Shown here: piece after piece, positions 20,688 to 64,000 of the stretch
Layout of the letters: the number at the start of each line of letters is the position of its first letter
How positions within the stretch are numbered: the first letter of the stretch is position 1
Position numbers and translations under genes: made by a program
NCBI GenBank assembly: GCA_040954595.2
Contig: CM082597.2
Span: 3,929,924-3,993,923 of the forward strand
Length of the DNA stretch: 64,000 nucleotides
Direction: 5' to 3'
DNA from: Balanoglossus misakiensis
Taxonomy: Eukaryota > Animalia > Hemichordata
Notes under the pieces: model-generated
Told to the model about the DNA's origin: nothing
Seen by the model: the letters and a program-made list of their open reading frames with translations, nothing else
Databases searched by the model: none

Positions 20688-21219
20688 TAGCTCTGCGTGG
20701 CAGGGCTGTGTTGTTACGGCGAGCCTCCACCCACAGCCCTGCAAAGCTCCATAGACAAAACTGGCGAAACTCAACGGATTTGTATCGGCAGGGTTTCCTT
20801 ACCGAAAACCGCCGATTTCGAACTCAAAACGTGGGTCGATCTTCGTTACTGGCCTCGATTACTCCAGTCGCTAGCAATTTGAGCTCAATTCCACCTGATT
20901 TTCGATGTTTAGGCTCCTGGGTTAACTCGTTGGTCAACGAGATCGAAATGGCTGCGTTCTTAGGGGTCTTCTCGCATTAACATCGAAAATGGGGCTTAAC
21001 GCAAGCAATTAGGTAGAGTTGAGCTCAAATTGCTAGCGACTGGAGTAATCGAGGCCAGTAACGAAGATCGACCCACGTTTTGAGTTCGAAATCGGCGGTT
21101 TTCGGTAAGGAAACCCTGCCGATACAAATCCGTTGAGTTTCGCCAGTTTTGTCTATGGAGCTTTGCAGGGCTGTGGGTGGAGGCTCGCCGTAACAACACA
21201 GCCCTGCCACGCAGAGCTA
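20688..21219. mobile_element. Non-autonomous Mutator/foldback-like DNA transposon, 532 bp
   Basis: ~201-bp near-perfect inverted repeats (20688-20888, 21019-21219) and 9-bp direct repeat GGAATGTCT on both sides (20679-20687, 21220-21228). Confidence 0.85.
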
Positions 21220-21440
21220 GGAATGTCTGTGTGGTGGGGTTATGAATCAAACTCGGTGGTTTTGCAGAAATGAGTACTAGCCTTGTACAACAGTGTGGTC
21301 TCATGCTTTGATTTGTCGTTGGAGTCACAAGTGGCATGCATGTCGGAATGCTGACTGAGGGATATGCAGTTGCGTCCCGCACAAGCTTCGAGCTTAGTGT
21401 CAGATTGGGATCAGCGTAAAGGATAATTTATGCATTATCG

Positions 21441-21509
21441 ACCAATCAGAGAACGTTTCGATCTCACCAATCAGTGACCATGGCGCCAATGTTTGAATGG
21501 TATAAATAG
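21441..21509 (+). promoter_or_regulatory. Histone H3 promoter (CCAAT boxes and TATA)
   Basis: CCAAT near 21442, 21467 and 21486; TATAAATA at 21501. Confidence 0.75.
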
Positions 21510-21549
21510 AGAGAGCAACTGAGTGGAACCATAGGCAGTCTGAATTTGA

Positions 21550-21969
<420 letters not shown>

Positions 21970-21998
21970 ACTGTGTGCCTAGCATACACAAACATAAC

Positions 21999-22035
21999 GG
22001 CCCTTTTCAGGGCCACCACATCCTCCAAAAAGAGA
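21999..22035 (+). promoter_or_regulatory. Histone mRNA 3' stem-loop and downstream element
   Basis: GGCCCTTTTCAGGGCC (21999-22014), then ACCACA, then purine-rich AAAAAGAGA. Confidence 0.93.
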
Positions 22036-22951
22036 ACTACCGTTGTGTCTTCGTCTGTATGTCAAATTGATTTAAAAAAGCGAAAATGTGAACAGAAAAC
22101 AGGGATGAGAAATTTGGGCTAACTACATTTGCATTTGTTGTATGGTTCACAAACCCTGCTTCTATTGTTCGCAACTGAAGCCCTATCACTACACACAATT
22201 CACACATGCACAGTTCTAACAAAAGTCCGCACCACTGATGGTTGCTATGCTTGATTGGGTGATCTGCATAAATCTATCCACACAATCACAAATGCGTAAA
22301 CAATGGTCATTACCCGTACACATACAGGCCATGAAAGCGAAGTAGACCCCGATAAATAACCACTATAGGGCCACCACATCCTCCCAATAGATAACTGCCC
22401 TACGTCTGTATTGTTAATTGTTTTTTAGGGTTACCGCGGCAGTAAATCACGTTTGTAGTTCGCATTTTCAGTTCCCCCTGGTAGCATCTGGACAAGTAAA
22501 CTTGCCAAGTGGTCTACCAGTCGAATGCGCGCCTCGAATCGCTTATAGTTGTTAATCTGCTGATGAAGCAGACTTGCCAAATATAGTCAACACGCAATTG
22601 AACACAAATACTCACCAAAATATTTCAATTTGGCTACGTGCCAGATTTGAACAGGAAGCGAATTGTTACAGATCACGCATTGTCACCCACATTGACCTGA
22701 TTGAGCTAGTGTAGCCTATATAATGATCAACCACTTAATCATTGACAAATGGCCACATAGCTAGCTGTACACCTTATAGTTATATTTAGGTGTTCCGTAA
22801 GAGACGTTATACAACCGAGGATTGATTCACACCAAGAACTGTTAGTACTAAGGCCTAACCAAAACTTTTGGATTTCATATCAAGTACGGGGGAAGCTTGG
22901 GACACTTAGTTTCTTGCTTGTGCAAACCAGCTACACTGCTAGACGAGTAGG

Positions 22952-29733: not shown

Positions 29734-29801
<68 letters not shown>

Positions 29802-32506
29802 ACTAGGTGCCTCACTGATTGGTGTGACTGAAGACAAGTCACTGGTGACACGATCTGTGGGTTTCGGTGGCCAATGGAGTGTGGTCCCAAACAGCTGCTG
29901 TGTTACTCGAATCGCCGTTATGAATGACGGCACTCTACTTGGCGTTGGCGAAGATGGCTCCCTGTACACAAAACAAAGCCTGGAAGTTGGCAGGTGGACC
30001 GTCGTGGACAACAGTTGCTGCGTTGACGACGTTAGCGTTATGCCGGATGGTACAATCATAGGTGCGAGTAGGAAGAGATTGGTATACCGATCTGATCTGA
30101 ATGGTGAGTGGGTTATAGCTAAGAAGAGTATGGGCATCGTCCGAGTCGATGCTTTCAGCGACGGAAGATTAGTGGGCGTTACAGCAATGGGAGCTCTGAA
30201 AGTCAGAGATGGTATAAATGGACGGTGGAAGCTGTTGAAGAGTAGACAGTTTAAGGCGGACGACATTGCCATACAGCCAGATGGTGTTATTCTTGGTATA
30301 AAGAAGAGAGCCTGTGGAGTCCACGTTCGCAGTGACGCTGGGAGGTGGGGTTCAGAATTAACAGAAAGCAGATGTGTGATATCGATAGCTGCTCCTGGAA
30401 ACTCTGGTAAGTCACAGTTGAGCCTCAGAAAATTCTATCTGTCTATGATTGAGAGTATAGACAGTTTCATCAAGGTTAAATGAGGCATGCATAAACTAAC
30501 CTTTAAGTTTTACTGACTGACAATTATTGTGACTTTGCTGAGTTTATTTGTTGTTTTATTCACACAGAGAGTCTAGTAGAACCGGAGCCAACCGAGGCAC
30601 CACCACCACCACCCCCACCCCCTCCGACAACTGCAGCGCCACCACCCCCACCCCCTCCGACAACCGCAGCACCACCACCCCCACCCCCTCCGACAACTGC
30701 AGCGCCACCACCCCCACCCCCTCCGACAACAGCACCACCACCACCCCCACCCCCTCCGACAACAGCAGCACCGCCGCCCCCACCCCCTGAAACAACAGCA
30801 CCGCCAGTCGTAACAACAGGTAAGGAACTATGCCCAATGAATACTTATGGTGACGTATTGCATGCCATGGCATTTGCTGGGGGAAAAGAGCACACACACA
30901 TGCACAGAATTGAAAGACCGCGGGTGATTTAACATGGGAGCTACCGAGTGTCTTACCTGCCGTGCTGAACACAACACCACAGTCATGTTATGATGTTATT
31001 CCAACACACATGACAACTTTCTTCAGTAGCCTCTCAGAACAAGTGATGTTATATCCATTAGACGTAAGAAACAATTTAAGCAAGTACAATATTGAAAAAC
31101 ACAGTTAGGGAACCACTATTTATGATTTTACATGGAAGGCCTATGGAATCCTTTTAACAATACATTGTGATATCGCTACGACAGTTGTATTGACGTTAGG
31201 GGTTTATTAAAATCCATGAACCAGCTAATTTCCCCGATGTATCTAATTTATTATACAACATACGATTTATTCTTTTCTTGTGTCTCATTGTATTTTTAAC
31301 GCAATTCGTCTTTTTTTAACTTTATATACAAAGCTAAACCAATACCGCCTGGAAAACCATCAGGTAATTTAGATACAATAACGCTATTATGGATAAATGC
31401 AGTTTAAATTTATTGTCGATAAAACTGTCTTTCGAGTGGGTTTCTTGGTTGTGTTGTGTTGTGTTGTGCGGAGTTCTTTTGATTTCTGTCTTTCTTCTTT
31501 CTCTCTTTTATATTATATCATCGTTCGAGACACGCCTCTCTTCTATTCCATTTATAGGCACCTTGTATGGACTTGGTCTCGGCTATCTGATCTACAAACG
31601 AGATGGCATAAACGCGGGTGTTTGGGAAGGGCCACTTCCTAACAGTTGCTGCGTTATAGATTTTACCACTCTGGCAGACGGAAGACTGGTGGGTGTCGGA
31701 GAAGATAACCAGCTGTACGTGAAGGCTGATGACAGTGCGCCGTGGGTTGGACCGGTGGCAAATAGCGGTGATGTTACTCATATCACCGCGATGCCCGATG
31801 GTACATTGGTCGGCGTGGGTTCGGATAATCAGCTGTACACACGTCCAGGCGTAGAAGGTGTCTGGTCTGGTCCAGTGCCTGGTAGCTATGGTGTAATTAC
31901 GGTTTCAGCCATGCCTGACGGTGGATTGCTCGGTCTGGGCGTGGACGGACCGCTGTACCACCGTCCAGGTATTCAAGGAACATGGACTGGCGTGCATGAC
32001 ACTCGTCTTCTGTATGATGTCACAGTCGGCGCAGATGGCACAGTAGTTGGTGCTGAAACAGACTTCGCCATTTATAGCAAATCATCGTATGATGTACTGA
32101 CTGGTTGGGGAAATCGAATCGACGACAGCCAATTCATCTTTGCCGTATCATTTTCAAAGGTGAGTTATTAAATTTTCTTCATCAGAACTCATAAGTTCTC
32201 CGAGTTTATGACTCAGGATAGATTTACAAAGGTTGACAAGAATATATATTTACATGACTTGTATACTATTAAAAATGACGTTGACACAGATGGTGTTCCC
32301 GGATAGCATGTTTTTAGCTCATTATTGGTCCGTTAGAACACGCCAGCAATATAAGGAAGAAAAAGAAAGCGCTAAAACTGTTACACGGGCTGATTGACAG
32401 GCAATATTCATTGCTTTGAGAACACGTACGTTCTATAGTTTTATGTCTATACACTTTCATCCATTCCCAAATGAAATCTAGTTTCACTGTTTCTTTGCAG
32501 GTGTGA
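28771..32506 (+). CDS. Secreted tectonin/tachylectin-like protein: two 5-repeat beta-propeller modules joined by a Pro/Thr linker
   Basis: Exons 28771-28809, 29294-29333, 29807-30406, 30568-30819, 31558-32159, 32501-32506 in phase. Signal peptide MKFVLVLLACFLQ; ~40-aa repeats such as DGTLLGVGEDGSLYTK...W...NSCCV. Confidence 0.8.
29511..29800. repeat. Compound (GCT)n/(GAT)n microsatellites in a lectin-gene intron
   Basis: Visible trinucleotide runs at about 29511-29640 and 29723-29800. Confidence 0.95.
30598..30790 (+). repeat. 33-bp coding minisatellite encoding (PPPPPPPTTAA)n
   Basis: About 6 copies of CCACCACCCCCACCCCCTCCGACAAC.GCAGC. Confidence 0.9.
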
Positions 32507-33847: not shown

Positions 33848-36536
33848 GTATGCAAGGGACTGGCCATGGGTGACTGCAGGAGCTAGCTTCAGGACCGTAG
33901 CTCGAGGTTTGATTTGCCTTCCACACATAATAGACTCCGAGCTATGGCGCTGCAGCTAGCCATGGCCAATCCAAGTCAAATCTGTTCTGACCATTTAAAT
34001 CCTGCGTCTGTACATGTGTCGTGTAGTCGCTCCCCTGTCGTCGTCCCCTGTCCGAAGCGTGTCTTTCAATAGTTCTGTACATAATGTCCCTTGACATAAT
34101 GACCTTCATATTATACGCATTTCAGAAACATCAGACAATCTCGATGATGCGACCATTCCTGATCACCAGTACGGTTTCAGTGAACTCCCTGAAACGACAC
34201 ATGAAAAACCAAGCAATGTGTTTGAGTATGAAGATTTTTCATCCAAAGGTAGGCTGTAGTACATGTCATATGATCTTTTCTAATCGCTAACCCTAAGAAC
34301 TGTACTTTGGTTGTACAAGCATTGACTGTCCTGTACTAAGCTCTTCTTAAAACTTAATATTTCAGAGTGTCATGAAATGATGGTAGAAATCAGAAAGTAT
34401 GACGGACAGCACGAGTTTGGTCTTATGTTTGAAACAGCATGTAAGAAATTAGCACGTCTGTTTGAAGATAATTCATTGGCTGCAGCTGGTAAGTAATGCT
34501 TAAGGACTGTAAGTCCATTCTTAAGATCCGAGTGGCACTTACAAATATTTAAACTATTTTTTTTATATTATACAAATGAAAATTAAACTCTCATGAAAAG
34601 AATCAGACAAGAAGCCTTTAACAACAAAAGTGAATACATGTACATAATGTGGTACTACGCAGTGATATTTCTTGCCACAGGTATAGTGCATGAATGATTA
34701 AATTTTCTTGTATTTTGTTTGTCAACAGATGTGTCAGTTATTGTCCAGAGCCTTGCACAGCGCGATCACTTATCTGTGGAATTTCAGCCCACAGAAGGTG
34801 ATTTGCAGACAACGTTTGCTGATATCTACGCAAACCACTATGATTTGGACAGTGTGACAGTTGAATCGAGGCCGCTACTATTCGATTACTTTACCATATT
34901 CTTAAACCAGAATGAAACACAAGAAGCAAACAATGACTCAGATTTAAATAAACAACTGGCGGCAAACTCAGACGGAAAGTATGCCTGCGAGGTGTGTGGA
35001 AAGATTTTCTCAATGAGGGAAAATCTGAGGAGACACCTGAAAACGCACTTGAATTTTCGACCGTACACGTGCCTTGAGTGTGGCAATACGTTCACCGAGA
35101 ACCACTCCCTCAAAAGGCACCTCAAACTGCACGCCAACGACCGACCGCACTCGTGCAAAGAGTGCGGCAAGTCGTTCACCGAGGCCTTTTACCTGAAAAC
35201 GCACATGAAGACCCATTCGGACGACCGGCCGTACGCCTGCTCCGAGTGCGGCAAGATGTTCAAATTGCGCGGCAGTCTGCAGGTGCACCAGCGGATCCAC
35301 TCGGACGAGAGACCCTTCGCCTGCAAACTGTGCGGGAAAACGTTCCGCGAGAACGGCAGCCTGACGAAGCACACGCGGTCGCACACCAACGAAAAACCGT
35401 ACCTGTGCACGGAGTGCGGCAAGGCGTTCTCGCAGTCTAGCCACCTCAAAGTGCACCAGATGATACACGCCAACGAACGACTGTACGTGTGCAAAGAGTG
35501 CGGCAAGAGCTTCAACGAGAGCGGCACCCTGAAGAACCACGTCAGGATCCACACCAACGAAAGGCCCTTCGTCTGCAAGGAGTGCGGGAAGACGTTCTCG
35601 CGGTACAGCTGCCTGCAGAAGCACATCCCCATCCACTCGGACAGCAAGCCCTTCAAGTGCGAGGCGTGCGGCAAACTGTTCCGCGAACGGTGGATCTTGA
35701 TACAGCACGAGAGGACGCACACGAAAGTGAAACCCTACGTTTGCACGGAATGCGGAAAGGGTTACACGGTGAGCGCCAGTCTGAAAAGACACGTGCGGTG
35801 CCACTTTGACGAAAAGCCCTTCGAATGCGAGGAGTGCGGCAAGAGCTTCACGGAGAAGTGGATCCTGAGCCAGCACCTGAGGACGCACACAAACGAACGG
35901 CCGTACGTCTGCAAGGAATGCGGCCGGAGCTACACGGTCAAGGGCAGCCTGATCAAACACATGGAGAGCCACGCAAACGAGAGACTGCCAGCGCATGTGT
36001 GGAAAGAGTGCGGCGAAACTCTCATTCTGAATGACAGTTTAGTTGATCCATCAGTCATCAACACAGAAAGCGATTCATCGAGGAACCGGGTTAGTGAGGA
36101 TACCCGCACACAAAGTGACCAGAGTGATGACAGTTTACCAACGGACCAGGTTGTGTACACAGATGATTTTTCGTCGCAACAAGAGTCAGCCAATGCTGAG
36201 TGCAGTTCAACAATTAGCATTGACGAAGACAGTTTCCCAAAACAACAGCCTATTGGCATGGATGGTACTATTCCCGGGCACACAGACAACTGTTCGTCGG
36301 AGATGCAGACGGCCCTCAGAGAAGGCATGTTTCCAGAACACCAGCGGCCTGAAATCATGGACTGTAATTTACAACAACAGGACACTGATGCAGAGGACAG
36401 TAACTCCAATCATTATCAGCCGATCAGCATCGGGAATAGTTTTCTGGAGCAAGAATCAATTGGTGTTGTCGGAATGGACTGCAGTTCACAACAACAGCAA
36501 CAGGATGAACCAATAGATTATAGCTTAAAGAGTTAA
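33508..36536 (+). CDS. C2H2 zinc-finger protein (12 fingers), 4 exons
   Basis: Exons 33508-33634, 34126-34248, 34366-34488, 34729-36536; 12 CxxC...HxxxH fingers with TNERPY-type linkers plus one degenerate finger; C-terminal PIDYS. Confidence 0.88.
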
Positions 36537-40954: not shown

Positions 40955-43900
40955 TCATATACTGCTTATACATAAGGATGCATTTGTCCCTCCAAAACCA
41001 AAGCTGTTAGTTAGAGCAACTTTTCTTCCACATTGGGGCACTGTCCATGGTTGAGATTCACAAGGAACATAGTTGAGGTCAAAATCATCCGTTGTTTCTG
41101 TAAGGTTTAGTGTCGGTGGTAATATGCCCTGTAGATGAGACATATGAACGAAATTATTACATGCACAACCTCACAAATGCTAGTTCATATTCAAACCAAT
41201 TTTCCAAGAGGCATTGCTGATAAGTAAACATTTCCTTGGGATTTTCATACGACACTTTAGGAATGTACTGGCCATGCTGCAACATATCTTTACAACATTC
41301 GTGGCAGTTGAACCCATTCCAAATATCAGTGCATTGCTTGCTCAAAAATTTATGCTGGTTCCCTAGCCATCAACTCACCGTGTGGCAAGCCATCATAGTG
41401 AATGCAGCTTCCAGGGCCCCAGCAGCACCAAGTAAATGTCCAGTAGCACCTTTGGTAGAGGAGACTGCTAGATTCTGGCTGTGTTCACCAAATACTGTCT
41501 TAACTGCTCTGTTTTCTATTGCGTCTCCTGGAATTATAATAGTTTGCAATGAATGGGATGGGATGTACGAGAGGTTTAATCACACGTCAAATTTCAGTAT
41601 TTTCTCTAATACATTCATGTTAAGTTACTGACTCTCTCTCTCCCTCTCTTTCCCTCTTACACACACACACACACACACAGCTCTACATGATGAAAAAGCT
41701 AGCTGCGTCTAACTACAAACGGACAACAATCAACAAGAAGACAATAACTGTACATTACTAGTTGTGCATTACAAAATTCTGCTATTTACAGGAAATCTAA
41801 TTTTAATGCTGAGCGATGTTCTGGACGAGCACAACATACAATGCTCTCTGCTACAAGTGCACATGCCCGCATCACCTGTATTTGTACTACAGGTAACGCC
41901 AGTTGCTGTATAATAATACATTGTTACCCAGTGGAGTTGATGTGGCATGTGCATTGACATATGTTATGTCTTCTCTGTTCACACCACTATCTCTCATGGC
42001 TTGCTGCATACATCTTATTGCCCCATTCCCATCCTCACTTGGGGCAGTCATGTGACTTGCATCACCTGTTGTCATGGAAACAAAGCCAGAAATGTAAATC
42101 TTTGGCCAATCTAATTTAGACGAAAAAATGTGAACATTAATGCAATACTTGAGATGTTGGCTTTGGATCTGTTCTGAAGTGCAATATGTATACACAAAAG
42201 AATTTTTTTTCTTATCCTAGTACCAACCTGACAGGCCATATCCCAAGATTTCTGCATACATACTGGCTCCCCTGCTGATTGCATGGTTGTATTCCTGTGG
42301 AAAAAAAAAGTTATCTGAGCTCCATAGTTGTTAGACATTGCTTGAATTCAGATAACAACTAATAACTACTATACTATTCTTAGCCCATATTAAGTTAAAA
42401 ATAATTTATTTCACGAAATATCTATTTACAATTATCTTTTCAATTTCCTGTAATTTGAGACTTCGATTTACATCTCTGTCGCATTAGCTTATTTAATACT
42501 CTCCCTATGATATTCTTTCTTGATGATATTTATTAACCTGTTAATCACCATGGTTCGCCCCAACTCCATTGTTTCAATGGACCTTTATACTGGCAAATGG
42601 GGGTAAAAGGGTTAAATGTATGTTAAGTTTTTCTCGGTATATTAAATTCAATCAATGTATAAAATAATAAACCATGAATAATTCGAACGCCATTTTCCTG
42701 TTGGAATATGGCCAAGAATGCATATTAATTTTACACATATCATATTTTCATATGTTTGTACACGCTCACCTCCAGTACAACTACGACAGCGCCCTCACCC
42801 ATCACAAATCCATCTCTATCCGGATGGAATGGTCTTGACGCTTTCTCTGGACATTCATTGAACTGTGTACTCAATGCTCTTGCTCTAAAAAGCAACAACA
42901 AATTTGATGATGCAAAATTATTATATATTTTTCGCTTGGGATAAATCAATTACATGTACTTTCTTTGACCCTACAGAAATGCTCTAGGCAATATACTTGC
43001 CCCTGTAAGCACAGAACATTTATCAAATACTTCAAACATTAGCATACCTCCCATTTCAGATTTTTTATGGGATCAAAAATCAAAAACAGGATTCACCTGC
43101 AAAATCCTGCCATGGCTAGGGGGTTAATGGAGGCTTCAGTTCCCCCGGCAACCATGACATCGGCATCTCCATTCCTTACAAATCTCATGGCGTCTCCCAA
43201 CGCATGGCATCCAGTGGTGCATGCGGTGGATACAGCATGGTTTGGCCCCTGTAGACACAGAAAAAAATAAATCCTAGAAATTGACATCAATACTTTGGGT
43301 TGCCATGTGAACAGACCGAGATCTATGGTGCTGCCTAAATCTCTCATAGAGGAGCGAGTATGTGCAGCTATACAGACCCAACATTTACATTACAATAAGT
43401 ATAACATTTTCAAAAGAAAATGAGTTTCTTACCATCAGTTTGTGTTTGATACTGATGTGGCCAGCTGCCATGTTCACAAGAATTCTTGGCACAAAGTATG
43501 GACTGACTTTGTTGTAACCCTGTTGATATAAAATATATTTCATAAAAAGTATGGTTGGCAGAATTACCTCACAAGAGGTGGTTTCACATGACTTGTGTTT
43601 CTATACTTTTTTCAACAAACTAATGTTGTAAAATTTGAAAATTCAATCGAGGTAGGAAGACTGACAAAACAGGATTGAAAATATCTTTTACCATTTTACC
43701 TTAGTCCTCAGCGCAATCCCGGAATCCACTATTTCATTCAGTCCAACCATTCCCATGCCAACTGCTACACCCTGAGAATGGAGCAACTCCAATAAACATG
43801 GGTATCAGGACAGCTGCCCCCTGGGTATTTAACATCCACATGTTCCCAAACTTACCAATGGGGGAGGTGTGTGGTGGATGAATGTCCAGGGGGTGTATGT

Positions 43901-49951: not shown

Positions 49952-52900
49952 ATGTCAGCCTTATACACAGCCGTGGTTAAAACAGAAGAAGAAGTCTGCA
50001 CAGACGAAGAGGGAGAAGAAGAAGATGATGATGAACTGTTCTCCACCCCGCAGGCAACGGTTATCAAACCGCTCATGTCACCAAGGAAACGGATCAAGTT
50101 GCCTGACGTGCCTTACGGGAAGAGGAGATATCATTTACATCGACAGGCCGTTGTCAAAAGTGTCGTTTATCTTGTTCTCCTGATTTCCTTGCTCGTCGGA
50201 ATGGCTTTTCTCAGCCTCCAGATCATCAAAGCGCTTGTGAAAGACCCCGGAGGCAGTCGCCATGGCAGCAGGCCCGTGGAGGAAGAGAAGATCGTCAGCT
50301 GCTCTAAATTCAAAGTAGAAGAGGTGTGGACTCAGACACTCCATCAGTTGCTGACGGAAGCAGCTTTCAGATTGAATGACGTGAATAGAGACGGAACACC
50401 TGACGTGGTGATTGGATTTGCAACAGGTGAGTTTGTTTCCATGACAACCAATGATGTGTGTTGGGATTTGTCACTTTCTTCAAGTCGCAAGGGTCATAAA
50501 ATCATCCCAAGGCACCCACACTATGCCTCACACAACCATCATGCATGTTTTTGTTCTAATTATTTTCTCCTTAAGGTATTTTGAAACTATAGTGCTTCCA
50601 GGCTGCATGACTCCCCTTACAAAAAATGTTTTATATATTTCTATCGCATTCTATAGACTTTGATTCTTCTATAATACATGTACATGTATTTAAAAGAAAA
50701 CAAGTCAAAAACTATCTATAGATGTCCACAGAAATGTTATAAATCATAGAAATTCAATAGGCTATAGAATTCTATAGATGTCTATAAAAATATTTTTTTG
50801 TATTTAGGGAAGAAAATATGATTAAGACAGAATATTTATAAGGTTGTAAAACTGATCCAAATAAGTCTCTGTGGCCCACAGGTGATTTGCTGAATCAGTA
50901 ACTGAGCATACATGTATAACACACCTGGGAATTGAAAGTGTAATTATAGCTGACAGTCTGTCTGCATTCAACGTTTCTACACACTAGGGTCAATATTCAC
51001 ACATATACAGTGTTCAGGGAGTTTGGACTCGACCTTTGAAATTTTGGATTTGCGTCGATTGAATGTTTACCCTATTTACTGCATGGCCTCTCTGACTGTT
51101 GACATTTGATATTTTCATAGTGGCATTAATCTTCACGTGTGCGTAGTTGTAAAGGTATAGACTTGCTCCAAGTCTATGAGCTGTAATTATGTCGGAATAA
51201 AATAAAATACATTTCAGCGATGTTTGTTAATAAGCCTAAGTACGCAGTAATGCCCTGAGAATTAAGGTTTGTGTGATTCATAGTTACAGCCCATAGCAAG
51301 CAGCCATAGCAAACATTCAGAAGTAGCAAAAGGTACAAATGGTTACATTGTAAGACTAAATTTATAGTTAATGTTTAAGACACTGTGGTCACATAAAAGT
51401 GACATAAAATACACACACACAATGACAAAACAGAAGCCATTAGTCAAGCAACAAGTTGGGTAGTCTACTGTGAATGTTAATCTTGTAAACTGAGTTGAAC
51501 AATATGACCTTACATGGTTAAAAGGGTGTGGCTAAGTCCTTCAGTGACCATGTGGTGGTGCCCTTTTACCACATGTTCACCCAAGTGAAAACCAGTGATT
51601 TTCTTAAGAGATAATGTGTAGACGTAGAATGTTTCTATTAGGGAGAATTATAAGGAGTTTGAATTGCACAATTGCAACTTAGTGACGAGAGCTTGGATTG
51701 GCATGTCTGTATCTACCATTCACATTTACTCCATTCATAGGTGCTGACCGTTACTTCGCAGAGCCGATACTTTGCGATCTCTACTTCAACGGCTTCCATC
51801 CCTGCCTTGGGGGGCTTCTTGCACTGGACGGGAAAACCGGTAAAGAATTATGGAGGCATTATTCTGAACATGAAATATTCGGTGTCAATTGCAACGTCGA
51901 TATTGACAGCGATGGAGTCAGAGACTGTTTGGGTGCGGGAAGGGGTGGGGTAAGTTGTCTGCTGAAGTTTTCTCTAAAGCACTGCAGTCGTTGTTTAAAA
52001 CAAAAAATGATTTGTACGATTTGCAAATTAAGTGACTTTATGATGCTATTTTAAAAGAGTCACATTGCAACGTCGACACTATTAAAAACTTAGTTCTGGC
52101 CAGTTCTGTAGCCAAGCAAAGAGCATGAATATGAGCTACCATTTTAACTTGCCTTTTATTGTCAGCCTCTTTTTTCCCAATAATGTCCAACTACTCCTGA
52201 GCCATAGGTACAATTTACTATCATTTGTGGACAAAAATGCAATCACCTATAATTCTTCTTTATATATATGAATAATAAAATAGTACTTTCATGTATAGTC
52301 ACAAACATGATATGGTATGATGCATTAGATTTTCATTTTCCCAGGCAACTGTGGGTTCATTGGCATTGGATTAAATTCTCACTTTCCATGGTGTGTGATC
52401 ATAGGTGACCCATATTGGATGTTTGACTCCCCAGGTATTCCATGCAGTAAGTGGGGCTACAGGAAAGTTGCTATGGCGATTCGACGAACACGAAGCCAAG
52501 GTGGACATCAGTAATTTGTACACGCCTCAGTTTATCCGCGATATGAACGGTGACGGGATACAAGACGTGCTGGCTATGCATGGAGGGGATCCCCTCAGAC
52601 AACCTGGTAAGTGTGTAGTCACTAAAGTACTGTCTACAGTACAGATCTAAGTGTTGTTTTCCAGTTTTCTAACAGTGTACTGTCTTGAAATTTTGTTGTG
52701 ATAATTTTTTTTAAGAATATTAAATATTAGTTTAATTTTTAATTTTTTCAGATGATTTTGACAAATAATCTCAGCATCCATGTTCACTTCCAGGTCACAT
52801 TTTGTTCAAATTGTCAACGTCTTAATTTTAAGTAGGCAGTACTTATCTATCGTAGCATTATATAGCCACAACATACTTGTACATGTATACACTAGCTTGT

Positions 52901-55900
52901 TGTTGACACATTGTCATTCATGAATACAAAGAGCACCCTCTGTGGTGATTTAAGCATTTGTCATGTATGATAGCGCCCCAACGGTGATTTAAGCATTTGG
53001 CATATCTTTCGTTTGTAAGGTAAACCCGTGGAGAAGATAGGCAGACTTATATTTTTCAGTGGCTCAACTGGGGAAATATTGAAGTGGGTACAGGTTCCTG
53101 ATAAACAGGAGTCTTACTATTCTCCACAGGTACATAATGTGCATTTATAGCCGTTAAAGTTATTCACCAATAATCCATTATATTGTCACTGTTGTAAATA
53201 TTACTGGTAGTTAATTCTTGTTGGTTTGTACATGTTGTGCAGTTTTATTGTTAGTAATAAGTATTGTTACTTTGTAACTTGTTGACTGTTTGTGGTAGTG
53301 GTTGTATATCTCGATGCTGGTTATTGCCGTCTGTAATTTGTGATCGGTTGAGTGTCGTTGCACTGCTAAGGTTAATGTTTACTTCAATTTGTCCAGAGTG
53401 TCTTGACTTCAAATGCAGAAGTAAGATTTGCTTGATTGTCTTGAGTTTAGATTATATTTTTTATTGAAATCTACTTATTAAATGATATGAGTAGGAACAA
53501 ATATATGCAAAATGTGATATATACTGTGAGAACAGAGGGTGGACTATACTTTGATCATAGTTCGAAACATCAAGAATGTAATAAAATACATAACATGTAA
53601 TCTGAAGAAGATAAAAAAACTGCAAATTGTATAATCATATTTATATGTCAGTACTAAAAAAATATATAATGGTTTTCATGTGCGCTATTAAAGCAAGTTC
53701 ATCTCAAAATACATTTATATTCAAATACTAAATTTAATTTCATATGCAGTATTTCATGAAAATGTAGTAGATCTGCATGTTTATCCTGTAAACCCTGCGT
53801 GTATTAAACTTCAAAGTGTACATCAACTCACTGAAACTATAATGTTATTAGTTATATAATACATCTATAATATTACTATATACTTTCCAAAAATTAGCTT
53901 ATCTTTTATAATTCTGTGCAGTACATCCCTTGATAGAGTGAAACAAGAAAATAGCATCTCAACATGAGATACATCAGACAAAAACACACTGTGTTTACAA
54001 GGAGCTGTAAGCAATGATTGCCTACACGGTTGCATTCGCATTAATTTTGTTTTTCTGGCATGACATGGTAGCATGTAAGTGACGTTCAAGTCAACATAAA
54101 ACACCCAAGGAGGGGAAGTAATTGTAATGCCCAGAATAGAAGCCAATTCAAATCTATTTTCTTCCCACTTCCCCACTACAGTCAAATATGTTTTAATTAG
54201 CACCTCTATATTGTGGAGACTTCTCTATAGTGGCAACTCCAACCCACATCCCAAACTCTAAAAGAGGAAGTTAGCTGGATGAAATGAACTCAATAAGGCT
54301 GACTTCCTTTGATAGGAAAATTATGTACTTTACCCTGTCTTGAAAACAAAAAAGCTGGGTTTTTTTAACAACCCTTCTAGTTGTATGGCCTGACCTGAAA
54401 AAGAAAATCATCTGTGAATATCTTGGAAGTTTTCTTCTTGACTGACAAGGTGTTTCCGTTCATGGTGAGAAAATAACCCCTGTGCTTAGTGCTTTCGTAG
54501 ACCACCTTGCCGGAGTCCCCAATCTGTGTCTTGTAAAATAGCCGTGGGTCATCAGTGGTCTTGTCCCTTGAAGGACTGGACATTCTGTCTGTGACGTAAA
54601 CTCTGAATTGGGATCTTTGCCGGATGTAGTACACCACAATGCAGCCATCGGTGTCTGCAAACTGTAGCAGGGTTGGCCGTTTCTGTCCCGTGCTTCTGGT
54701 TTGGTAGTAGTGTTCTTTGATGTGATCTGAATTAAAAAGTAAAATAAAATTGAGCACACCTACTGCAGGGATTCTTGTGTCAAACTTCCATCGAAACCTC
54801 TCCACCAATTTAGATTTTGTCCACCCCATTTAAAAAAGCAATGAAGTTCATCTGATTTAATTATTGCCATGAGGAAGTGGACATAAATCTAAATGAAAAT
54901 CTTAAATTTCCATACCCAATATACTTAGAAGTTCCTATCTTACTTCCCCATATTTCTGCCAAGGTGCATGAAATTAATTCAATTGTACTTCCCAAAGAAC
55001 TTCTTGTTCCTGGTAGAATGAATTTTACTGACAAAGAAGGGGCAAGTCTAAAATATACCACTGATTTATTTTTAACCCCAGGTATTAACCTAAGACATTC
55101 GACCTACTTATCATGTTACCATATATGGTAACTTATAACGTTTGAATGTTTCTTCATAATGTTTTTTTTTATTTTCAAGTAAAATTTCTAATTCTAACCC
55201 AAATGTCAACCTAGGTATAATGTGACTTTTTTGACGTTTTTGTGATTATTTATTTTTAATGATTAAATCTGCTCAAATATGCTCAATCACTAGTAAAAAC
55301 TAAATTCACGACTTAAATGGGCAAAATATTTGGTATCTTGACTAAAATTTAAATGATGGAAGTCATATCCATGTGTTACATAAATGATCATGACAAACTG
55401 TGATTTGGCATATTTTTGTATGTTGAACATCAAACATTATCAAAAGAAACTTAATTATCAAAAATAATGTCAAAAGTGAGCAAGTTTGTCTTATTAATAA
55501 TATTGCAATTGTTGATAAGTGAATTGCTTCAAAAAATACGTGAAAGGTAAACATAACAATGATAAATTACAGTATCTAAAATTACTGTCATAGTTTCTTT
55601 ACAACAAGCTACCTTTCCACTGTCAAAATTTGGTCACTGAGCCTGCTAATGGTTAAATGAACATGTTGACTAAGTAAAAGAAGATGGAAGGTTGAACGTA
55701 CACATGCAGGTTTATACTCACAATTTGATGCTGATGCTCTGGGAGTATAGGGCACTCCCATCACCATTCCTGAGTTACTTTTCAGCAAGCAGCACATAGT
55801 ATGTCTTTGTAGTGACAAAGCCACACTCTGCACAACCACATCTCCGACATCACTACAGTGCCGCAGTGGTATCCTGGTTGCAGAGCCCTCGCAGATGGCT

Positions 55901-58900
55901 TCATGCTTTTTCCGGATGACCACAGTTTCAGCTGCGACCACATATATGTATTTGCTGGCAGCGGCCGGGCACACCTTGGCACTGATGTCGCTGACTTGTC
56001 TCACTAGCTTCTTGGTCGACTTGGAAAACATCTTGGTCTGTTGCAAGCAAGCCAGAATAAAAAATAAACAATATAGTATATGAATCATGTACTCTAGAAA
56101 TAATACTTCAACACTGTTTTATATTATATAGATCAAGCAACACCATTAGAGTCCACAGGATTAGCCAAAAAATTGGCGACGAGTGGGTAAATAGGTCACC
56201 AGAACATTTATGACAAATAATACAAATTACTAGCAAATGTCACAATTGTTGTAATTATTTTTTTACTAAACTACACAGTCTGCTTGTTCATACCAGGAAT
56301 CAGTTTAGCCAATTTAACAGTGTATAGACATACAAATTTCAAATGTAAGCTGCATGGTTCATAGTACAGCAAAACACTGGAGAAAATACAATAGTTAAGG
56401 CCAAGAGATCTTCAAAAATTCAAAATGAAATTAAGTTTTTCTATAGCTAGTCTCTTCTAGTCTTTTCCTGTAGTTGTGTGTGATTGTCATACTCACTAGT
56501 GTGTTACTTCCAATGTCTGATTGAATAGACAAAGATATCTATTAGTTGACTACGTCTTTCGGTGTGTACTCCTGTGAATCCCTGTAGACTATGAATGTGT
56601 GCGTGCTGGGGAAAAGACCTTAAGTCTTTATATAGCTACCGTCTGGAAACCACAGATAATATTAGATTTCTTGAAGGGTATCATATCTGTGGATTAAAGT
56701 CCGTAGGGGATTTCCCAAATATTTTGGACACCACCACATCGTGTACACTCTGCACTTTGAAACGAGATAGTCAAATTGTACATTAACTTCCTGATTTTTG
56801 TAACAATAGGCGGGGGTGGAATTCGAAGGGCACCGTGACCCTTCACTGGAATGGCACCTAAAGACAGGTTTATTGGCCAAATGATAAAATACCGGTATAC
56901 CAAATGGAAAGCATAAGAATGTGAATATCAATGTTGACTCAGTTACACTGATAATTTTTTTATCCTTTTGCAAACAATGATTGTGTACTACTTCCCTATG
57001 TACTTTGCAATGTTCTTCTGCAAATTACTGGCTACATATATAATTATGTAGTGTTGTACCATGAACTTTGGGATTGTTTGTTTTTATAAAAGCAGAACGT
57101 CTTTGTATTAAGCAGGGAAATTATTATCCAGGGAATTTTCACCTAAAAAGTTTTAACTATAATACTGGTGTTGAAGGGTAGAAGATATAGTCAGTTGTCT
57201 TGATCAGATAGCCGATAATGGCTCCAAAACATTCTAGGTTAGAAACTCACATAAAAAAAAACATATGTGAACTTGATGATTCACTATGAGTTGGACTGCC
57301 TACATTTGTGATATCATTACCCCTCCCAGCTTTGGTGGTATGGGGATTAACTTATGTCCGCTACAACTGAACTGGAATCACCATGGGATTATACTCTAAA
57401 TGATTCACCTCGTATGATAGCCATGTAAGCCAGTTTCTGAGCGACTCCAGCTCGTGGACTGTATAATTATCCAACCCCAACTTACACCAGACTTTTTCCC
57501 ATTACACAGAGATGTGATTTAATTGAAAAAAATGCAAATTAAGGTCACAACCTGCACAATGAGCTTTCAAAATACATGGTACATACAGTATATTCCATTA
57601 GCACCGTGTTTTCATCATTAATAATTTTAACTTTTTTGGTATTAAACAGATTTATTATGACAGAAATGGCAGAGAGGTTGTACTGTTTGGCACAGGCGGT
57701 GAAACGCATGGTGGTTCTTTGTGGGCGATTGGCTTACAGGAACTATTTCAGGGACATATACATCAGGTGAGGATTATAGATTTCGATTAGATTCCAATGT
57801 TCATGGGAAGTAATGCATCAGCTGTTCCGCCAATGTGCATTTCAAATTTTTAAGTTCACATAAAGGTTTCACAATAATTCAGCAAAGACAAGCATATGAT
57901 GACAAAATATAATAAAGTTAACAAAAATAAATTACTGGTTTCTACACAGGCAAAGGAACTTTACAGGGACAACTTCAAAGGAGTGATGACCCCTCCTGTT
58001 CTGGTTGACATAACTAGCGATGGTGTCACAGATATCATCATGGCCATGTACAATTCATCAGTGCTTGCTATTAATGGAGACACGTTTGACTACATATGGA
58101 ATTTTACCATGCCGTTGTCAGAGTCATACAGGTATGGTAATTACAGATTGAGTGTTGAAGAATGTTTTCATTCAACAAAGGAGTGCAGAAAAAAATCTCT
58201 ATGGTGGTGCCGCAAAATAAAACATAATACAACAGGATTTTCATGTATTCATGAAAAATGAAACAATCTCAGCAAACAGTACATTTCAGTCATATTCTGG
58301 TTTCTTGAATTATGATATGGTACCCTATGTAACTTATATAAGTTGTCAGTAAAACAGTAATAATAGTTTATAGTTAATAACTTGTTCTTAAAATTCATCA
58401 TGTTTCTATATTACATGTAGTACCCCAGCCCCTGGCTATTATAACACTGACAATATACCAGACTTCATGGTTAAGTATGCACATGGACCAGGATTTCCTA
58501 TTTACTACTATTCACAGGTAATGTGAACTGTGTATCAGTCAATATCTCATTTAATTTACATCCCTATTTAACACTCACCAACTTAAATATGTTTTTTTTT
58601 TCTCTACAAACCTGTCTAAACCTGAAAACTAAAAGACTAAGAAATTGTTGAGTTTACAGAAGTAACATGGTGTCCTATCTGAAAGGGACTGGAAAAGCTG
58701 TTCAGATTAAACAGGTTTCTTCATTAAATAGTGTTTGGATTAGACAGGTTTGACTATATGATTTTGATTGAATTCTCGTCAAATTCAAATATCACTAATG
58801 GCACAATATCCACTTGCTTTATTTTGGATAAGCTGTTTCATAGTACACTGACATTTGTTTGTTTGTTTGTTTGTTTGTTTGTTTGTTTGTTTATAGAGCA

Positions 58901-61900
58901 CCATTCTAGATGGCAAAACAGGCAAAGCATTACTGAAACCGTACATAAAAGACACAATAGGTTCTCAGAACTCACCCCTGACTGTGAGTATGGAAGGGCA
59001 TGGCAATGACATCTTCCTCTACTGGATAAGTGACTGTGAGAAACATGAAGGTGAACATGACAAAGAATTCACATTTGTGGAAGGTTTGTAAAGATTTCAA
59101 AATTTATGTTATTCTATTCAGATGTTGGCAGACTGAAATTCTCAATACACATTGTACAGTAAAATGTGTCTTAATTACAAAATTAACCTATAGCTAATTC
59201 AGTTAAGTGTGTAAATTCGCTAATTTGATATGCCTCTAATTAAAACTTTTCTCTATATTGTAACCATGGTGAAAGTGTTGTTATAGCTAAATTACCAGTA
59301 CATGTTATTGGCTATCAGGTAATTGCAGAAATATATGATTCTGTGGCCAACAAAAGTTCATTTGCATAAAGAAGTGTGCCGCAACCATGATCTACTTAGA
59401 CAAATCCTGTTAATCACAGACTAGTTTGGCTGCCTTTTAGTGTTTCTGTACACAGGAATAAGTGCTGTTTTTATGTCTTTGATACAATGTATGTCGTTTT
59501 TTATATCACATCATAGGTACCAATGTACATGAACAAAGTCGGTCAGATTTGTGTAAACTACGATTCAATTCCAAAGAATATACCAGACTGTACATGATGA
59601 ATAGACAATCTGGAGCCCTAGGAACTGTTTTGTATGATTCTGGTAAGTCGTCAAATTTTGTGCTCGACGAAAGTCATGATGGTCAAACTATACCCCAAAA
59701 TGACAACCAGAATATATTTAAAGGGAAGTAAAAATGCAAAAGTCCCCTACCACAACTTTAAATTAATTTTAATCAGATATGGTCTTCACATATTATTTAA
59801 CAGAGGAAAGATGGGAGCTTGAACATCGGAATGTGGTAAATACATCAGCTATGGCTTGGCAGTATGTCCAAAAACATCCACAGTTCAAGAAAACTTACCT
59901 GAAGCACCTTGAAAGACAGAAACAGCTCGAAAAAGAAGCAGAGAGTGGGCAGAAAGTTGACAGAACAGAGAATAAAGATTTTTCTGTTGAAGCAGAAACG
60001 TCAACGCCAAAGCAGACACACAATTTAATGGGCAAGAAAGCTAGGAAGGAGTATTCACAGACAGCTGGGCAGGAATCAGGTCCTACCAGAAACAAGAATT
60101 TCGGAGCTGATAGGGATAATGACAACAGGAATGATTTGGAAAATTTGTATCGTCGCTTTGGTTATCGTTATCCCCTGGGAAACCCACCAAATGCAGGCTA
60201 CTGGGAGGGGCAAAGACCAGGGAGATATCCGTATCCAGGTGTTTCAGGTACAGCTTGGCCGATGGATCCTGAAATAAACTCAAGACAACTTGAAGATAGA
60301 GTAGACGGGAGAGGAGGCACTGATCACAGATATGGCAGTAACGCGAACTCAGGTTATCAAAATAGTTTGCGAGACCGTGATCGACCTATCCCCGGAGGCC
60401 AGACAGGAATTAATGGACAGCACCAATATTCCACAAATCCGTATCAGACATATCATACACAAGTACCCATGGCTCCCACGGATGAGCAATCTGAATCGTT
60501 AGACTATCCCAGTGAGTTCTGGAAGTATTTCTTTGGTGAGCCTGAGGAAGGGGAGTATCTGAGACCTGCAGTGAATGAGGGCTATTCAAGTGGACACAGA
60601 CCAGGCAAACAGGAAGAAAAAAGATCAAAAGCTGTGAAAACACAAAATAGCCACATTGCGGCACAAACTAACTCTCAAACTCTAAACAAGAAATCTCGAA
60701 ATTTAGGGAGACTGGACAAACGTTCGACAAGTTTTTCTGATGTTGACGTTAACCATAACCTCAAGAGATTCCAGAAAAGAAATATAGCATACAATGGCGG
60801 CGGCCAGTTTCAAAATTTAAGGCATAGGTTTGATAAAATTTTTGTGGCAGAAGATGATCTCAGTGGCGTACATAGCCCATATATTGACAATCATAATGTA
60901 AATCATGAAGATGAACCAACACAAAGTTCAAAGGACGGACAAAAAATTGAGGTGCGAGAGGATACTACTGTTGAGAGAAAGGAAATAAACCCAAAACTGT
61001 CAGACCACTACAAACAAGTGGATCAAAGTGAAAAATTTATTAAAGAAATCCAACCAAACATTCGCAAGAGGAAGAAACGGCATGTTGGTTCACATGATGA
61101 TGGAGGTCTTCAGAGACTTTTGTCGACAGGGACGTTAGCTCCTACACTGAACTCTTCCAGCAGGGATGCCGGGCATAGCATCGATGTAATCTTTGCAACC
61201 TACTGGTTTTACCCTGCTAAGACTAGAGTTGTGTTTCCAGATCAACAGAAGTGTATTGATGATATGATGAACGATGAAGTTCAGAGATTTGATCCAAATA
61301 GTAAGTATATAGCCAGTAAATAAAACACTGCTTGTGTACAATAGATCCTATTGATCAAACAGTATAAATTTAACATACCGTTATGTCAGGAATTTATGAT
61401 TCACTATTTGTGTATTAGTCCTTGGTTTATTGCAAGACATGGCATTTGACTACTGCATACTGTTTTGAATACATGTACACTATTTGAACAACTCTACTTC
61501 AGCAACATAGCCCAAATACCTTCAGACTTACTTATTATTTTCTGATTCAGATGAATTTTATGGTGATGATCATGATGCATATGAAGACAAAGTGAGAGGA
61601 AAATGTCTTGGAGAAGGTGAGTAAGGCATGATCCATCTGTACACACACCAGTTGCAACACGATAAAATTAACACATATTATAAACACACAAAAATACCTA
61701 CCAATAGCACAATACATGCAAATCTGTATGAATTAATGTGATTAATGATACTATCTAAACCATTTTCTCCTTTATTTTATTTTTTACTCAATAACAGCTG
61801 TGTCTGTAGTTATTTTATTAGTTATTTTTTCCTCATAGTCTTTTTTATCAGTGGATTTCGCATGTACAACTTCAGTTGATCTTTTTACAAATTATGGTTT

Positions 61901-62253
61901 TATTTTGTCAGATTTTTATTCTGTGCAAATTTGGAGCTATGTAGATATGGCCTTCTTACACTGATGCAATGTTATGTCTATCACTTCTACCAGATGATGA
62001 TGATGAACACGAAGACCATGATGTCCACGAGTCTCAGACCAACTACAACCCATTCAACATCCACATGGGACAGATGACAGTTTACAGACTGACTCTGAAA
62101 TGTACGTGTGAAGGCGATCCCAGACTTGAAGACACCAGCAACCACTGCAGTAAAATATTACCGTTTGATCAACAAGAATGGGCGGCATACATGGGGACAC
62201 ATGGAAACAGTCTGTTCAACTCCAGAGAAAATCACCAAAAAAGGTCTCATTGA
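49952..62253 (+). CDS. FAM234/ITFG3-like type II membrane protein with FG-GAP-type repeats, about 12 coding exons
   Basis: Acidic N-terminus, one TM (VVYLVLLISLLVGMAFLSL), DVNRDGTPDVVIG, DIDSDGVRDC, DMNGDGIQDVL, DITSDGVTDII. Approximate exons 49952-50427, 51741-51949, 52435-52606, 53020-53129, 57650-57766, 57950-58131, 58421-58517, 58898-59083, 59517-59642, 59804-61300, 61551-61617, 61994-62253. Confidence 0.82.
50612..50810. mobile_element. AT-rich MITE-like element
   Basis: Imperfect terminal inverted repeats TCCCCTTACAAAAAATGTTTTATA and TATAAAAATATTTTTTTGTATTTAGGGA, with internal CTATAG palindromes. Confidence 0.5.
54377..56031 (-). CDS. Nested leaderless beta-trefoil protein, IL-1/IL-18-like, 219 aa
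   Basis: Coding exons 56031-55722 (donor GTGAGT) and 54726-54377 (pyrimidine tract + CAG) join in phase 1. C-terminus RLFYKTQIGDSGKVVYESTKHRGYFLTM...LSVKKK...DDFLFQV resembles the last strands of IL-1-family proteins. Confidence 0.7.
56627..56941 (-). promoter_or_regulatory. Putative promoter of the nested gene: TATA, NF-kB and AP-1 motifs
   Basis: TATATAAA (minus strand, 56634-56627); GGGGATTTCCC at 56706-56716; TGACTCA at 56935-56941; probable non-coding exon 1 ending at a GTGAGT donor at 56496. Confidence 0.65.
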
Positions 62254-62336
62254 TGCAGTTGGCAGTAATTTGCTAATGAAAAAACCCTTATGTATGTATT
62301 GGATGTTTGTCAAAATTTCCAACTCAAGTGGTACGT

Positions 62337-62504
62337 ACATACATACATACATACATACATACATACATACATACATACATACATACATACATACATACAT
62401 ACATACATACATACATACATACATACATACATACATACATACATACATACATACATACATACATACATACATACATACATACATACATACATACATACAT
62501 ACAT
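62337..62504. repeat. (TACA)n microsatellite in the 3' region of the FAM234-like gene
   Basis: Roughly 40 perfect units. Confidence 0.97.
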
Positions 62505-63737
62505 AAATACACACACATGCATGCACATTTATAGTATGTGTACCGGTATGATTGATGTATGTGTGATGGATATACACTGTTTTATGTGAACAAATATATG
62601 TATAATATATATACATAAAGGTGTGCATTATAGGCTGGAAGTCTCCTGTAGACTATATAGTGGAATACAATTGAGTAGCTGAACGAGAAACTATTCTGGC
62701 ACTATATATAGCTGTATAGTCTAGATTTATGCGCATGTACATTTAATACGTTGTATCCTATATGTAGAACATATTGTTATATGATATTATCTATACAGAT
62801 CTATATATACATTATATACATTAAATAGACATACAGCTTTAAGTAATAGCTAATGAGATTGATTGAATATACATAAGATTATATATTCATATAACAAATC
62901 AAGATTTTATTATTTTTCTGACAATATGCCTGTTTCCTGCTACATGATTGTTACAAAGGTGCATTCAACAGGTTATCAAGTCTTTCAGTGTTTTGTCATT
63001 TATACAAAACAAAACCATATGTCCATGCATGTATTTACTATTCGTTATCTATGCGGAAAAGACACTCAATATCCAGTGTTTCCAATACAAGGGCAAGGTT
63101 CTGTGCACACACACAGCGTCCATGGTTTATATGTATGAAATATAGGCTTTCAAAATATCCACCAGCTCTTAGTACCTGGAACATAATACACAAATTTAGT
63201 ACAGTTTTATAATACATGTACAAACATGCATAGTTAATGCAAACAACACATTTCTTGGAATAGCTATTGTCGTACATGTTTTGAATACAAATGTGAATAT
63301 GTCAACATATTAACCTAGAGTTACACGTCGATAATAAAGAGAGCTTCATGTTTTATGCAGAAATGTGTGAGCGTTTTTATTTTATGTCCCTTATAGCCAG
63401 ATAAACATTTCGCTCGCTTCATCTGGACGTCTAGACGTTAACCATCTAAGCATGGATATATTGACGCTTTAGCAGGACAATTTTGTGATAATATAACTTA
63501 TAAGGTATCGTATAAAGCTTATGAGAAACTGAATTGGCATCCTTTGCACATTGTTTTCCAGTAACAAATGTTGAACAGAGAAATTGAAGCCAGTTCATGC
63601 TATTCTAGATGTCATCATTACAAAGTTCTATAATATGTAATTCCTATCGTGTTGTGTATATTGTTAATCATTCTCACAAAGTGCCCAGACAACTAAGTGG
63701 TATCTTCTGAACTGGGTGTGGCCGTGTTGTCATAATG

Positions 63738-63926
63738 AATGATTTATATGTCAACCATTAGAATGTGCATTAAGACAAATACATGCCGAAATAGCTTTGG
63801 AGGTTTCTGTTGTTTAGTGCACATTAATTTCAGCTCTTCTGAATTGGTTGTTATAATGATTTATATGTCAACCATTAGGATGTGCATTAAGACAAATACA
63901 TGCCGAAATAGCTTTGGGGTTTCTGT
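63738..63926. repeat. Local direct duplication (~118-bp period)
   Basis: ATGATTTATATGTCAACCATTAG.ATGTGCATTAAGACAAATACATGCCGAAATAGCTTTGG occurs twice. Confidence 0.85.
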
Positions 63927-64000
63927 CATGTTTAGCACACGTTATTGTTGTGTTTACAGGACTAATGGATTTTCAATAATCATTCCACTTACCCTAAGTG

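Follow-up and report, generated by a model that had tools for sequence, protein, structure and literature searches.

A PDZ-less IL-1-like gene in Balanoglossus misakiensis and the candidate caspase site at the edge of its predicted trefoil

Is the front piece of an invertebrate interleukin-1 (IL-1)-like protein a propeptide that a caspase removes, or a part of the protein that stays on? The question is raised by a minus-strand spliced gene in a 64,000-nucleotide stretch of the hemichordate Balanoglossus misakiensis (GenBank assembly GCA_040954595.2, contig CM082597.2, positions 3,929,924 to 3,993,923 of the forward strand; hereafter the window, whose own numbering is used throughout). Its predicted product is a 25-kDa protein of 219 amino acids (aa), for which an initial annotation proposed that a caspase removes the first 64 or so residues as a pro-piece. 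The question whether IL-1 was already matured by caspases before the vertebrates arose rests on one sea urchin protein, which is cut inefficiently and far from its trefoil. Invertebrate IL-1 proteins (IL-1anc), PDZ-less members among them, and caspase cleavage of one of them have been described by Fontenla-Iglesias et al. 2026 (PMC13736523). The general idea of invertebrate IL-1 cleavage is already in print, and a caspase cut at the present locus is a conjecture.

With a single DxxD motif at the predicted domain edge of this two-exon protein, three outcomes are to be told apart, namely an activating cut, an inactivating cut, and an alarmin that is born ready. The answer we favour, tentatively and at a little under even chances, is that residues 1 to 64 are what is left of the IL-1anc linker, still folded, and would stay attached, with D64 marking the start of the first strand rather than an activating cut. 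Retention is favoured because (i) the front piece is as conserved as the core, fold-prone and beta-rich; (ii) the P1' residue is Val; and (iii) the cut mapped in the urchin protein SpurIL-1.3 lies upstream of its trefoil.

Gene model and front piece

The gene is predicted from a coding exon at 56031-55722 and another at 54726-54377, and the elements relevant to the front piece are as follows.

55722..56037, minus strand: first coding exon (acceptor CAG at 56040-56038, ATG at 56031), residues 1-103 plus 1 base
54727..55721, minus strand: the sole intron within the coding region, in phase 1 and separating predicted strand 3 from predicted strand 4
54377..54726, minus strand: second coding exon, residues 104-219, predicted strands 4-12; stop at 54377
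55840..56031, minus strand: N-terminal segment, residues 1-64, basic, with two predicted beta-rich stretches (~8-21 and ~26-42)
55987..56001, minus strand: R11-Q-V-S-D15, a conserved RQxS and a second conserved Asp (QVSD/I; QISD/I in the ortholog)
55840..55851, minus strand: D61-V-G-D64, candidate caspase site with P1' = V65; the sole DxxD in the protein

The donor of the first coding exon is GTGAGT at 55721, and the acceptor at 54726 is preceded by a T-rich tract. An open frame was obtained with eight acceptors, of which only 54726 reproduces the junction of an uncharacterized 222-aa protein of Ptychodera flava (XP_070549042.1/XP_070549059.1; hereafter P0001); the seven others were rejected because they disagree with that junction. 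P0001, by sequence the likely ortholog, is the only homolog found: searches returned it alone among 59, 86 and 180 candidates, and among 1.84 billion representatives only P0001 itself was recovered. One metagenome candidate, the single one of 116 pattern matches to pass, looked like a bacterial-type transporter gene read in antisense, and we discarded it as a chance match. Identity to P0001 amounts to 59 of 93 aligned residues (63%) in the first exon and 83 of 114 (73%) in the second.

Taking Met1 as the start (see below), the front piece likely comprises about 64 residues. These are basic, as the initial annotation had stated (11 Lys + Arg versus 6 Asp + Glu; isoelectric point 9.4). Their identity to P0001 (41/62, 66%) is close to that of residues 65-219 (104/152, 68%) and reaches 79% in residues 4-27. 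By charge-hydropathy, residues 1-64 group with folded sequences, being hydrophobic enough to fold, and the two beta-rich stretches are predicted in both species (Chou-Fasman). The conserved L/I-V-R-Q-V/I-S14 was likened by eye to the K-R-Q-x-S that several ambulacrarian IL-1anc proteins carry close to their N-termini, and we also take it to resemble a basophilic kinase site.

A linker origin is suggested by several further likenesses, all of them judged by eye. The IL-1anc proteins inspected (Table S2 of PMC13736523) carry a beta-hairpin-like stretch between PDZ and trefoil to which the front piece appears alike, and several of them share with the window protein an RQxS-type motif near the N-terminus, in addition to a linker-like segment before the trefoil. 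SkowIL-1.1 has a P..C..G-D before its first strand with the same spacing as P55..C59..G63-D64. Likewise, V-G-D-V-V-V-Q-S resembles fish IL-1anc linkers (L-H-D-V-V-V-L-S in sturgeon, I-H-D-I-V-I-Q-S in bichir; for fish nIL-1F, see PMC7144542), a likeness which implies that an Asp before a Val-rich strand recurs in the IL-1anc family.

Were the front piece retained, the gene would be induced through the kB/TATA promoter that its upstream motifs suggest, the protein, having no leader, would build up inside the cell, and the whole protein would be released on lysis or damage, or trimmed by other proteases, and might then signal, by analogy with IL-1alpha or IL-33. Those two are active without a caspase cut; their N-terminal domains are longer, with no homology to the front piece shown. 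The N-terminus of IL-33 is basic.

Trefoil prediction and the position of D64

The predicted fold of the 219-aa protein is likely an IL-1/IL-18-type beta-trefoil, and the IL-1-like identity first assigned to it is likely right; the match in size to mature IL-18 held up. Pfam IL1 (PF00340) scored 14.6 bits on P0001, below its cut-off of 25 (E 0.026), and reached E 0.0062 on the C-terminal part of P0001; a Pfam scan of the window exon gave AbfB only (E 0.011). When a two-sequence profile of the second exon was searched against the PDB, all 16 matches at E<=10 were IL-18 or IL-37 (best E 0.11), and the YES of both orthologs aligned with the FES of IL-18 and the LES of IL-37.

54491..54499, minus strand: Y180-E-S182, variant of the strand-9 [F/L]ES motif

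The full-length profile gave six PDB matches (four to IL-18/IL-37 and two to unrelated PTS entries), phmmer of P0001 against PDB sequences returned none, and a search of NCBIfam gave nothing relevant. Sequence searches are reported to fail for invertebrate IL-1 members (PMC13736523). By ESM Atlas features, P0001 fell with IL-18, IL-37, IL-33 and IL-1 clusters at 0.91-0.94; IL-18 was nearest (0.94, 203/256), and all 10 of the 10 best named matches share family or clan. The Atlas model of P0001 (pLDDT confidence score 0.60) superposes residues 62-216 on an IL-18 fragment over 147 residues, with a template modelling (TM) score of 0.79 in that comparison; ricin-type trefoils reach a similar TM (by query) in the same search. 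AlphaFold2 models of P0001 were of low confidence (pLDDT 31 alone, 35 with the two window exons as alignment rows). Foldseek found no match to the pLDDT-35 model at E<=0.001, a result we disregarded because the model is unusable.

The site reads H58-C-S-D61-V-G-D64-V-V-V-Q-S-V70. A cut after D64 leaves residues 65-219, i.e., the 155 aa initially counted (17.9 kDa). With V65 as residue 1, YES begins at position 116, and FES begins at 115 in mature IL-18 (second-exon profile alignment), a count that places the boundary only to a few residues because loop lengths differ across the IL-1 family. The Atlas superposition on the IL-18 fragment begins at P0001 residue 62, which corresponds to H58. D61 and D64, each of which would supply Asp at P1, lie within about 5 residues of the predicted boundary, and the original placement of HCSD61-VGD64-VVVQSV just before the first strand is right to that precision.

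55810..55839, minus strand: residues 65-74, predicted first beta-trefoil strand; two registers possible

In the first register, L72 is the first core residue of strand 1. Its spacing to L82 is then 10, the other two foils having 9 and 10; stretch 74-79, in which 1 of 6 residues is identical to P0001, becomes a loop; and, of the starts from 58 to 76, a gapless comparison of 14-mers points to this register. D64 then falls at about position 2 of what we take to be the mature IL-1beta-equivalent chain. A cut after D64 would leave 7 residues before L72, and a cut after D61 would leave 10; for IL-36 and relatives, 9 residues are reported between the cut and the A-X-D motif. In the second register, set by V67, residues 63-70 score highest in a gapless internal comparison with the strand-9 block (17, against a mean of -6.9 and a standard deviation of 5.5), and the P..C..G-D spacing common to SkowIL-1.1 also fits by eye. 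This register puts D64 about seven residues into the domain, such that a cut would damage strand 1. As to the boundary, which the initial annotation had recommended locating in a model, the superposition starts at H58 and one of the two registers places D64 inside strand 1. A third register (residues 80-85 as strand 1, from an L-K-S likeness to fish IL-1anc) was rejected, as it leaves too few residues for strand 3 ahead of strand 4 and as 97-103 is conserved at 1 of 7 positions.

A retained linker or a removed pro-piece

Retention and an activating cut are close in odds, the activating cut being slightly less likely; we regard it as a genuine but doubtful possibility. Here the protein would be a pro-IL-18-like precursor that a DxxD-preferring caspase cuts after D64 or D61, so that a cytokine of 155-158 aa would be released from a front piece that is folded and inhibitory. 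Our own starting estimate gives any IL-1-family protein a chance of about 1 in 5 of activation by a caspase at its edge; from there, the DxxD raises the odds, and the P1' Val, the P2 Gly and the adjoining strand lower them. Human pro-IL-18 shares with the window protein a short beta-rich front piece, an Asp almost equally far from the ES motif and a similar product size; it differs in its site (LESD/Y versus DVGD/V) and in the length and charge of its front piece (36 aa versus a basic 64 aa). The pro-IL-18 front piece, like vertebrate propeptides, is acidic.

A number of observations weigh against retention. Neither protein has a DxxD other than D61-V-G-D64, whose last residue falls at the predicted trefoil boundary, and product size and ES-motif distance lie within 1-2 residues of those of mature IL-18. 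A DxxD ended in the 9-residue boundary window in 2.4% of 40,000 shuffles (7.9% for residues 40-70), percentages weakened by the motif having been picked after it was seen; any Asp in the 9-residue window occurred in 40% of shuffles, i.e., is common by chance. The L72 register, with its foil-like spacing and the agreement of the 14-mer test, treats L72 as the aliphatic residue of A-X-D and leaves D61 and D64 outside the strand core. The invertebrate caspase sites DEPD (urchin SpurIL-1.3; PMC13736523) and DVVD (amphioxus GSDME) are likewise DxxD, and the pro-domain strands of pro-IL-18 are built into its trefoil yet removed, predictors misplacing this pro-domain (PMC12570158). Moreover, the negative cleavage tests on IL-1anc proteins were run in 293T cells, with human caspase-1 and a single lamprey caspase as the enzymes (PMC13736523). 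On the side of the linker itself, an Atlas search with residues 1-70 gave no fold match (best TM 0.45) and feature leads all below 0.9; the linker resemblance was judged by eye, unscored, and involves two incompatible mappings; and the internal-repeat match behind the V67 register was not significant with gaps (59/500 shuffles), 4/4 gapped tests staying within the range of shuffles. Conservation rests on one ortholog.

Conversely, an activating cut meets several difficulties. Val at P1' is tolerated by caspases but lies outside the preferred G/S/A, in keeping with the earlier remark that it is not optimal; Gly occupies P2; and V65-Q68 is a predicted strand that begins at P1'. Both D61 and D64 are kept in P0001 (as D65 and D68), where DVGD/VVVQSV is identical, an extra Asp stands at the S60 position and C59 is replaced by Ser. 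In the conservation check that had been proposed, the pair is kept in 1 of 1 ortholog, which is uninformative: of the 12 Asp in the protein 7 are conserved, as are 15 of the 19 residues (79%) in 55-73, so that local conservation explains that of the Asp pair. In addition, the A-X-D motif serves to locate cuts in the IL-1 family, and the protein has no Asp at its X-D; D64 lies 7 residues from L72, not 9. One survey reports PJVK and no GSDME in hemichordates, such that a release pore is not established, and our literature search found no paper joining gasdermin, caspase-3 and hemichordates.

The published cleavage data point the same way: 1 of 8 IL-1anc proteins tested was cleaved, away from the trefoil edge (PMC13736523). 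That protein, SpurIL-1.3, is the only mapped invertebrate case; its cleavage falls at D184 (DEPD), which lies upstream of the trefoil by about 60 residues, so that the linker stays on, and D212, D226, D227 and D229, nearer the trefoil, are dispensable (PMC13736523). By hand count its FES begins at F346, 162 residues past D184, compared with 180 residues from Met1 to YES and 116 from V65 to YES in the window protein, and its cut product retains about 60 residues before the trefoil, as does the whole 219-aa protein, which thus resembles that product in size and arrangement. Both proteins carry a DxxD upstream of the trefoil; the two differ in that DEPD184 stands ~60 residues away from it and the window motif abuts it.

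As to the enzyme, caspase-1 prefers WEHD-type sites, with an aromatic residue or Leu favourable at P4, and DxxD is the caspase-3/7 motif (see also PMC12550167, PMC4840362, PMC12052993, PMC8473687, PMC10155998 and PMC11508797). Neither HCSD/V nor DVGD/V has the favourable caspase-1 P4-P1' pattern, whereas the DxxD character of D61-V-G-D64, on which the initial annotation did not remark, fits caspase-3/7. Of the proposed caspase-removed pro-piece, then, what stands is the location of the two Asp at the predicted domain edge, the size of the product and the presence of both Asp in the ortholog; retention is slightly likelier, and the motif is not of caspase-1 type. A compact, NF-kB-inducible, PDZ-less pro-IL-18-like cytokine matured by a caspase-3/7-type enzyme at DVGD64, right at the trefoil edge, is a rather unlikely conjecture; if maturation at DVGD64 were true, an invertebrate IL-1 protein would for the first time share the exact cleavage position of vertebrate IL-1beta and IL-18, but with a DxxD caspase as the enzyme.

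It is improbable that the gene model is incomplete, i.e., that the protein has a longer N-terminus with a PDZ domain or signal peptide, or that the trefoil is intracellular, without an IL-1 receptor, and not a cytokine. The acceptor 6 bases upstream of ATG 56031 implies that upstream exons exist. The Pfam IL1 score below cut-off and the similar TM of ricin-type trefoils would suit a non-cytokine, and no IL-1R, ESD, GCC2 or EIF2A domain was found in the segments scanned (139 of the 226 open segments of >=62 aa plus smaller scans; 75 segments below position 22,300 and shorter exons were excluded). An in-frame ATG at 56088 (56032-56088, minus strand) would prepend 19 mostly hydrophobic, signal-peptide-like residues. 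These residues are the translated pyrimidine tract of the acceptor and are absent in P0001; the extension is likely an artefact, and an intron-retaining secreted isoform may exist. Against a longer protein, RefSeq P0001 begins at the matching Met, is of near-equal length and has the same exon junction, and the nearest upstream exon is free of ATG and carries in-frame stops, which together make Met1 the likely start. No PDZ was found in the protein or in the upstream open segments scanned, and P0001 has only 222 aa. Sequence and feature matches alike point to the IL-1 family.

Least probable is an inactivating cut, in which D64 would lie in strand 1 and executioner caspases would clip the protein in dying cells, switching the cytokine off as they do IL-33 (caspase-3/7 at DGVD, midway in the IL-1-like domain): the DxxD, the strand-9 repeat match and the SkowIL-1.1 spacing suit it, but a site within a barrel strand would be poorly accessible, the same P1' penalty applies, and the register needs a 5-residue insertion before strand 2.

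Relation to known IL-1 genes and genomic surroundings

The gene is best filed, on its sequence features, as a PDZ-less invertebrate IL-1-like gene that lacks two IL-1anc features, i.e., the PDZ domain and the exon structure. With the PDZ-less IL-1anc members (SpurIL-1.3, AjapIL-1.1 and PclaIL-1.2/1.3) it has in common a predicted IL-1-type trefoil, the strand-9 ES motif and no evident leader. Between three and five exons encode the IL-1anc trefoil, and two of the introns, central ones, are conserved, in contrast to the two coding exons and one intron here; the window gene also differs in having no PDZ, no acidic tract, and a nested antisense position in a FAM234-like intron. Its phase-1 intron presumably matches a conserved trefoil intron, if the IL-1beta intron phase is as we take it to be. 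The hemichordate IL-1anc members PflaIL-1 and SkowIL-1.1/1.2 are different proteins, with PDZ. The PDZ-less gene is absent from the accessible published IL-1anc table, which lists one different, PDZ-bearing P. flava protein, and the P0001 accessions are absent from the seven readable supplements of PMC13736523. By title this is the only paper on invertebrate IL-1 ligands among the literature matches listed. Its review file mentions >80 further ambulacrarian members and two hemichordate clades, among which the window gene may be. The gene would represent a PDZ-less hemichordate IL-1-like lineage missed by a PDZ-guided search.

IL-1R signalling was not shown for the published IL-1anc proteins, whose loci are linked to an ESD, GCC2, EIF2A, TRAF3 or IL-1R gene, paralogs outside these loci being noted (PMC13736523). 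None of these five genes was seen in the window segments scanned.

Upstream of the coding exons lies a compact candidate promoter (56497-56716, minus strand) that, judged from its motifs, would fit an inducible cytokine gene.

56706..56716, read on the plus strand: NF-kB-type site GGGGATTTCCC, candidate promoter element ~75 bp upstream of the TATA box
56627..56634, minus strand: candidate TATA box TATATAAA, one of 3 TATA-like matches in 56100-57600
56497..56600, minus strand: candidate non-coding first exon, predicted; no ATG, 2 in-frame stops, 5' end approximate
~53019-53147 and ~57602-57787, plus strand: two exons of a FAM234-like host gene, one on either side of the intron in which the IL-1-like gene lies; limits approximate

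We take the names NF-kB and TATA to apply to these motifs. The kB-type site is one of four distinct GGGRNNYYCC loci in the 64 kb, and the 9 matches in all do not exceed what shuffling gives (14/100 shuffles reach 9); a looser kB-like match lies at 57131. The donor GTGAGT at 56496 is one of three consensus donors in 56100-57600. AU-rich elements amount to 3 ATTTA in 1230 AT-rich bases, for which we claim no enrichment.

The IL-1-like gene is antisense inside a 4.5-kb intron of the FAM234-like beta-propeller gene, whose neighbouring exons match PF23727 weakly (E 0.004 and 0.094, below cut-off). This multi-exon gene spans about 51700-64000 (plus strand), with weak PF23727 and FG-GAP matches, and carries a 514-codon low-complexity exon (59779-61323) with no Pfam match. 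Elsewhere in the window are four long single-ORF (open reading frame) TRIM genes at 8854-24898 (RING, B-box, filamin; NHL repeats in two of the four; three minus, one plus); two tectonin-domain (beta-propeller lectin) segments at 29800-32171 (plus), with a kB-type site at 29360 upstream of the first; a single-ORF multi-C2H2 zinc-finger gene at 35013-36536 (plus); and exons of a beta-ketoacyl synthase gene at 41373-43389 (minus), either mitochondrial OXSM-like or part of a fatty-acid/polyketide synthase.

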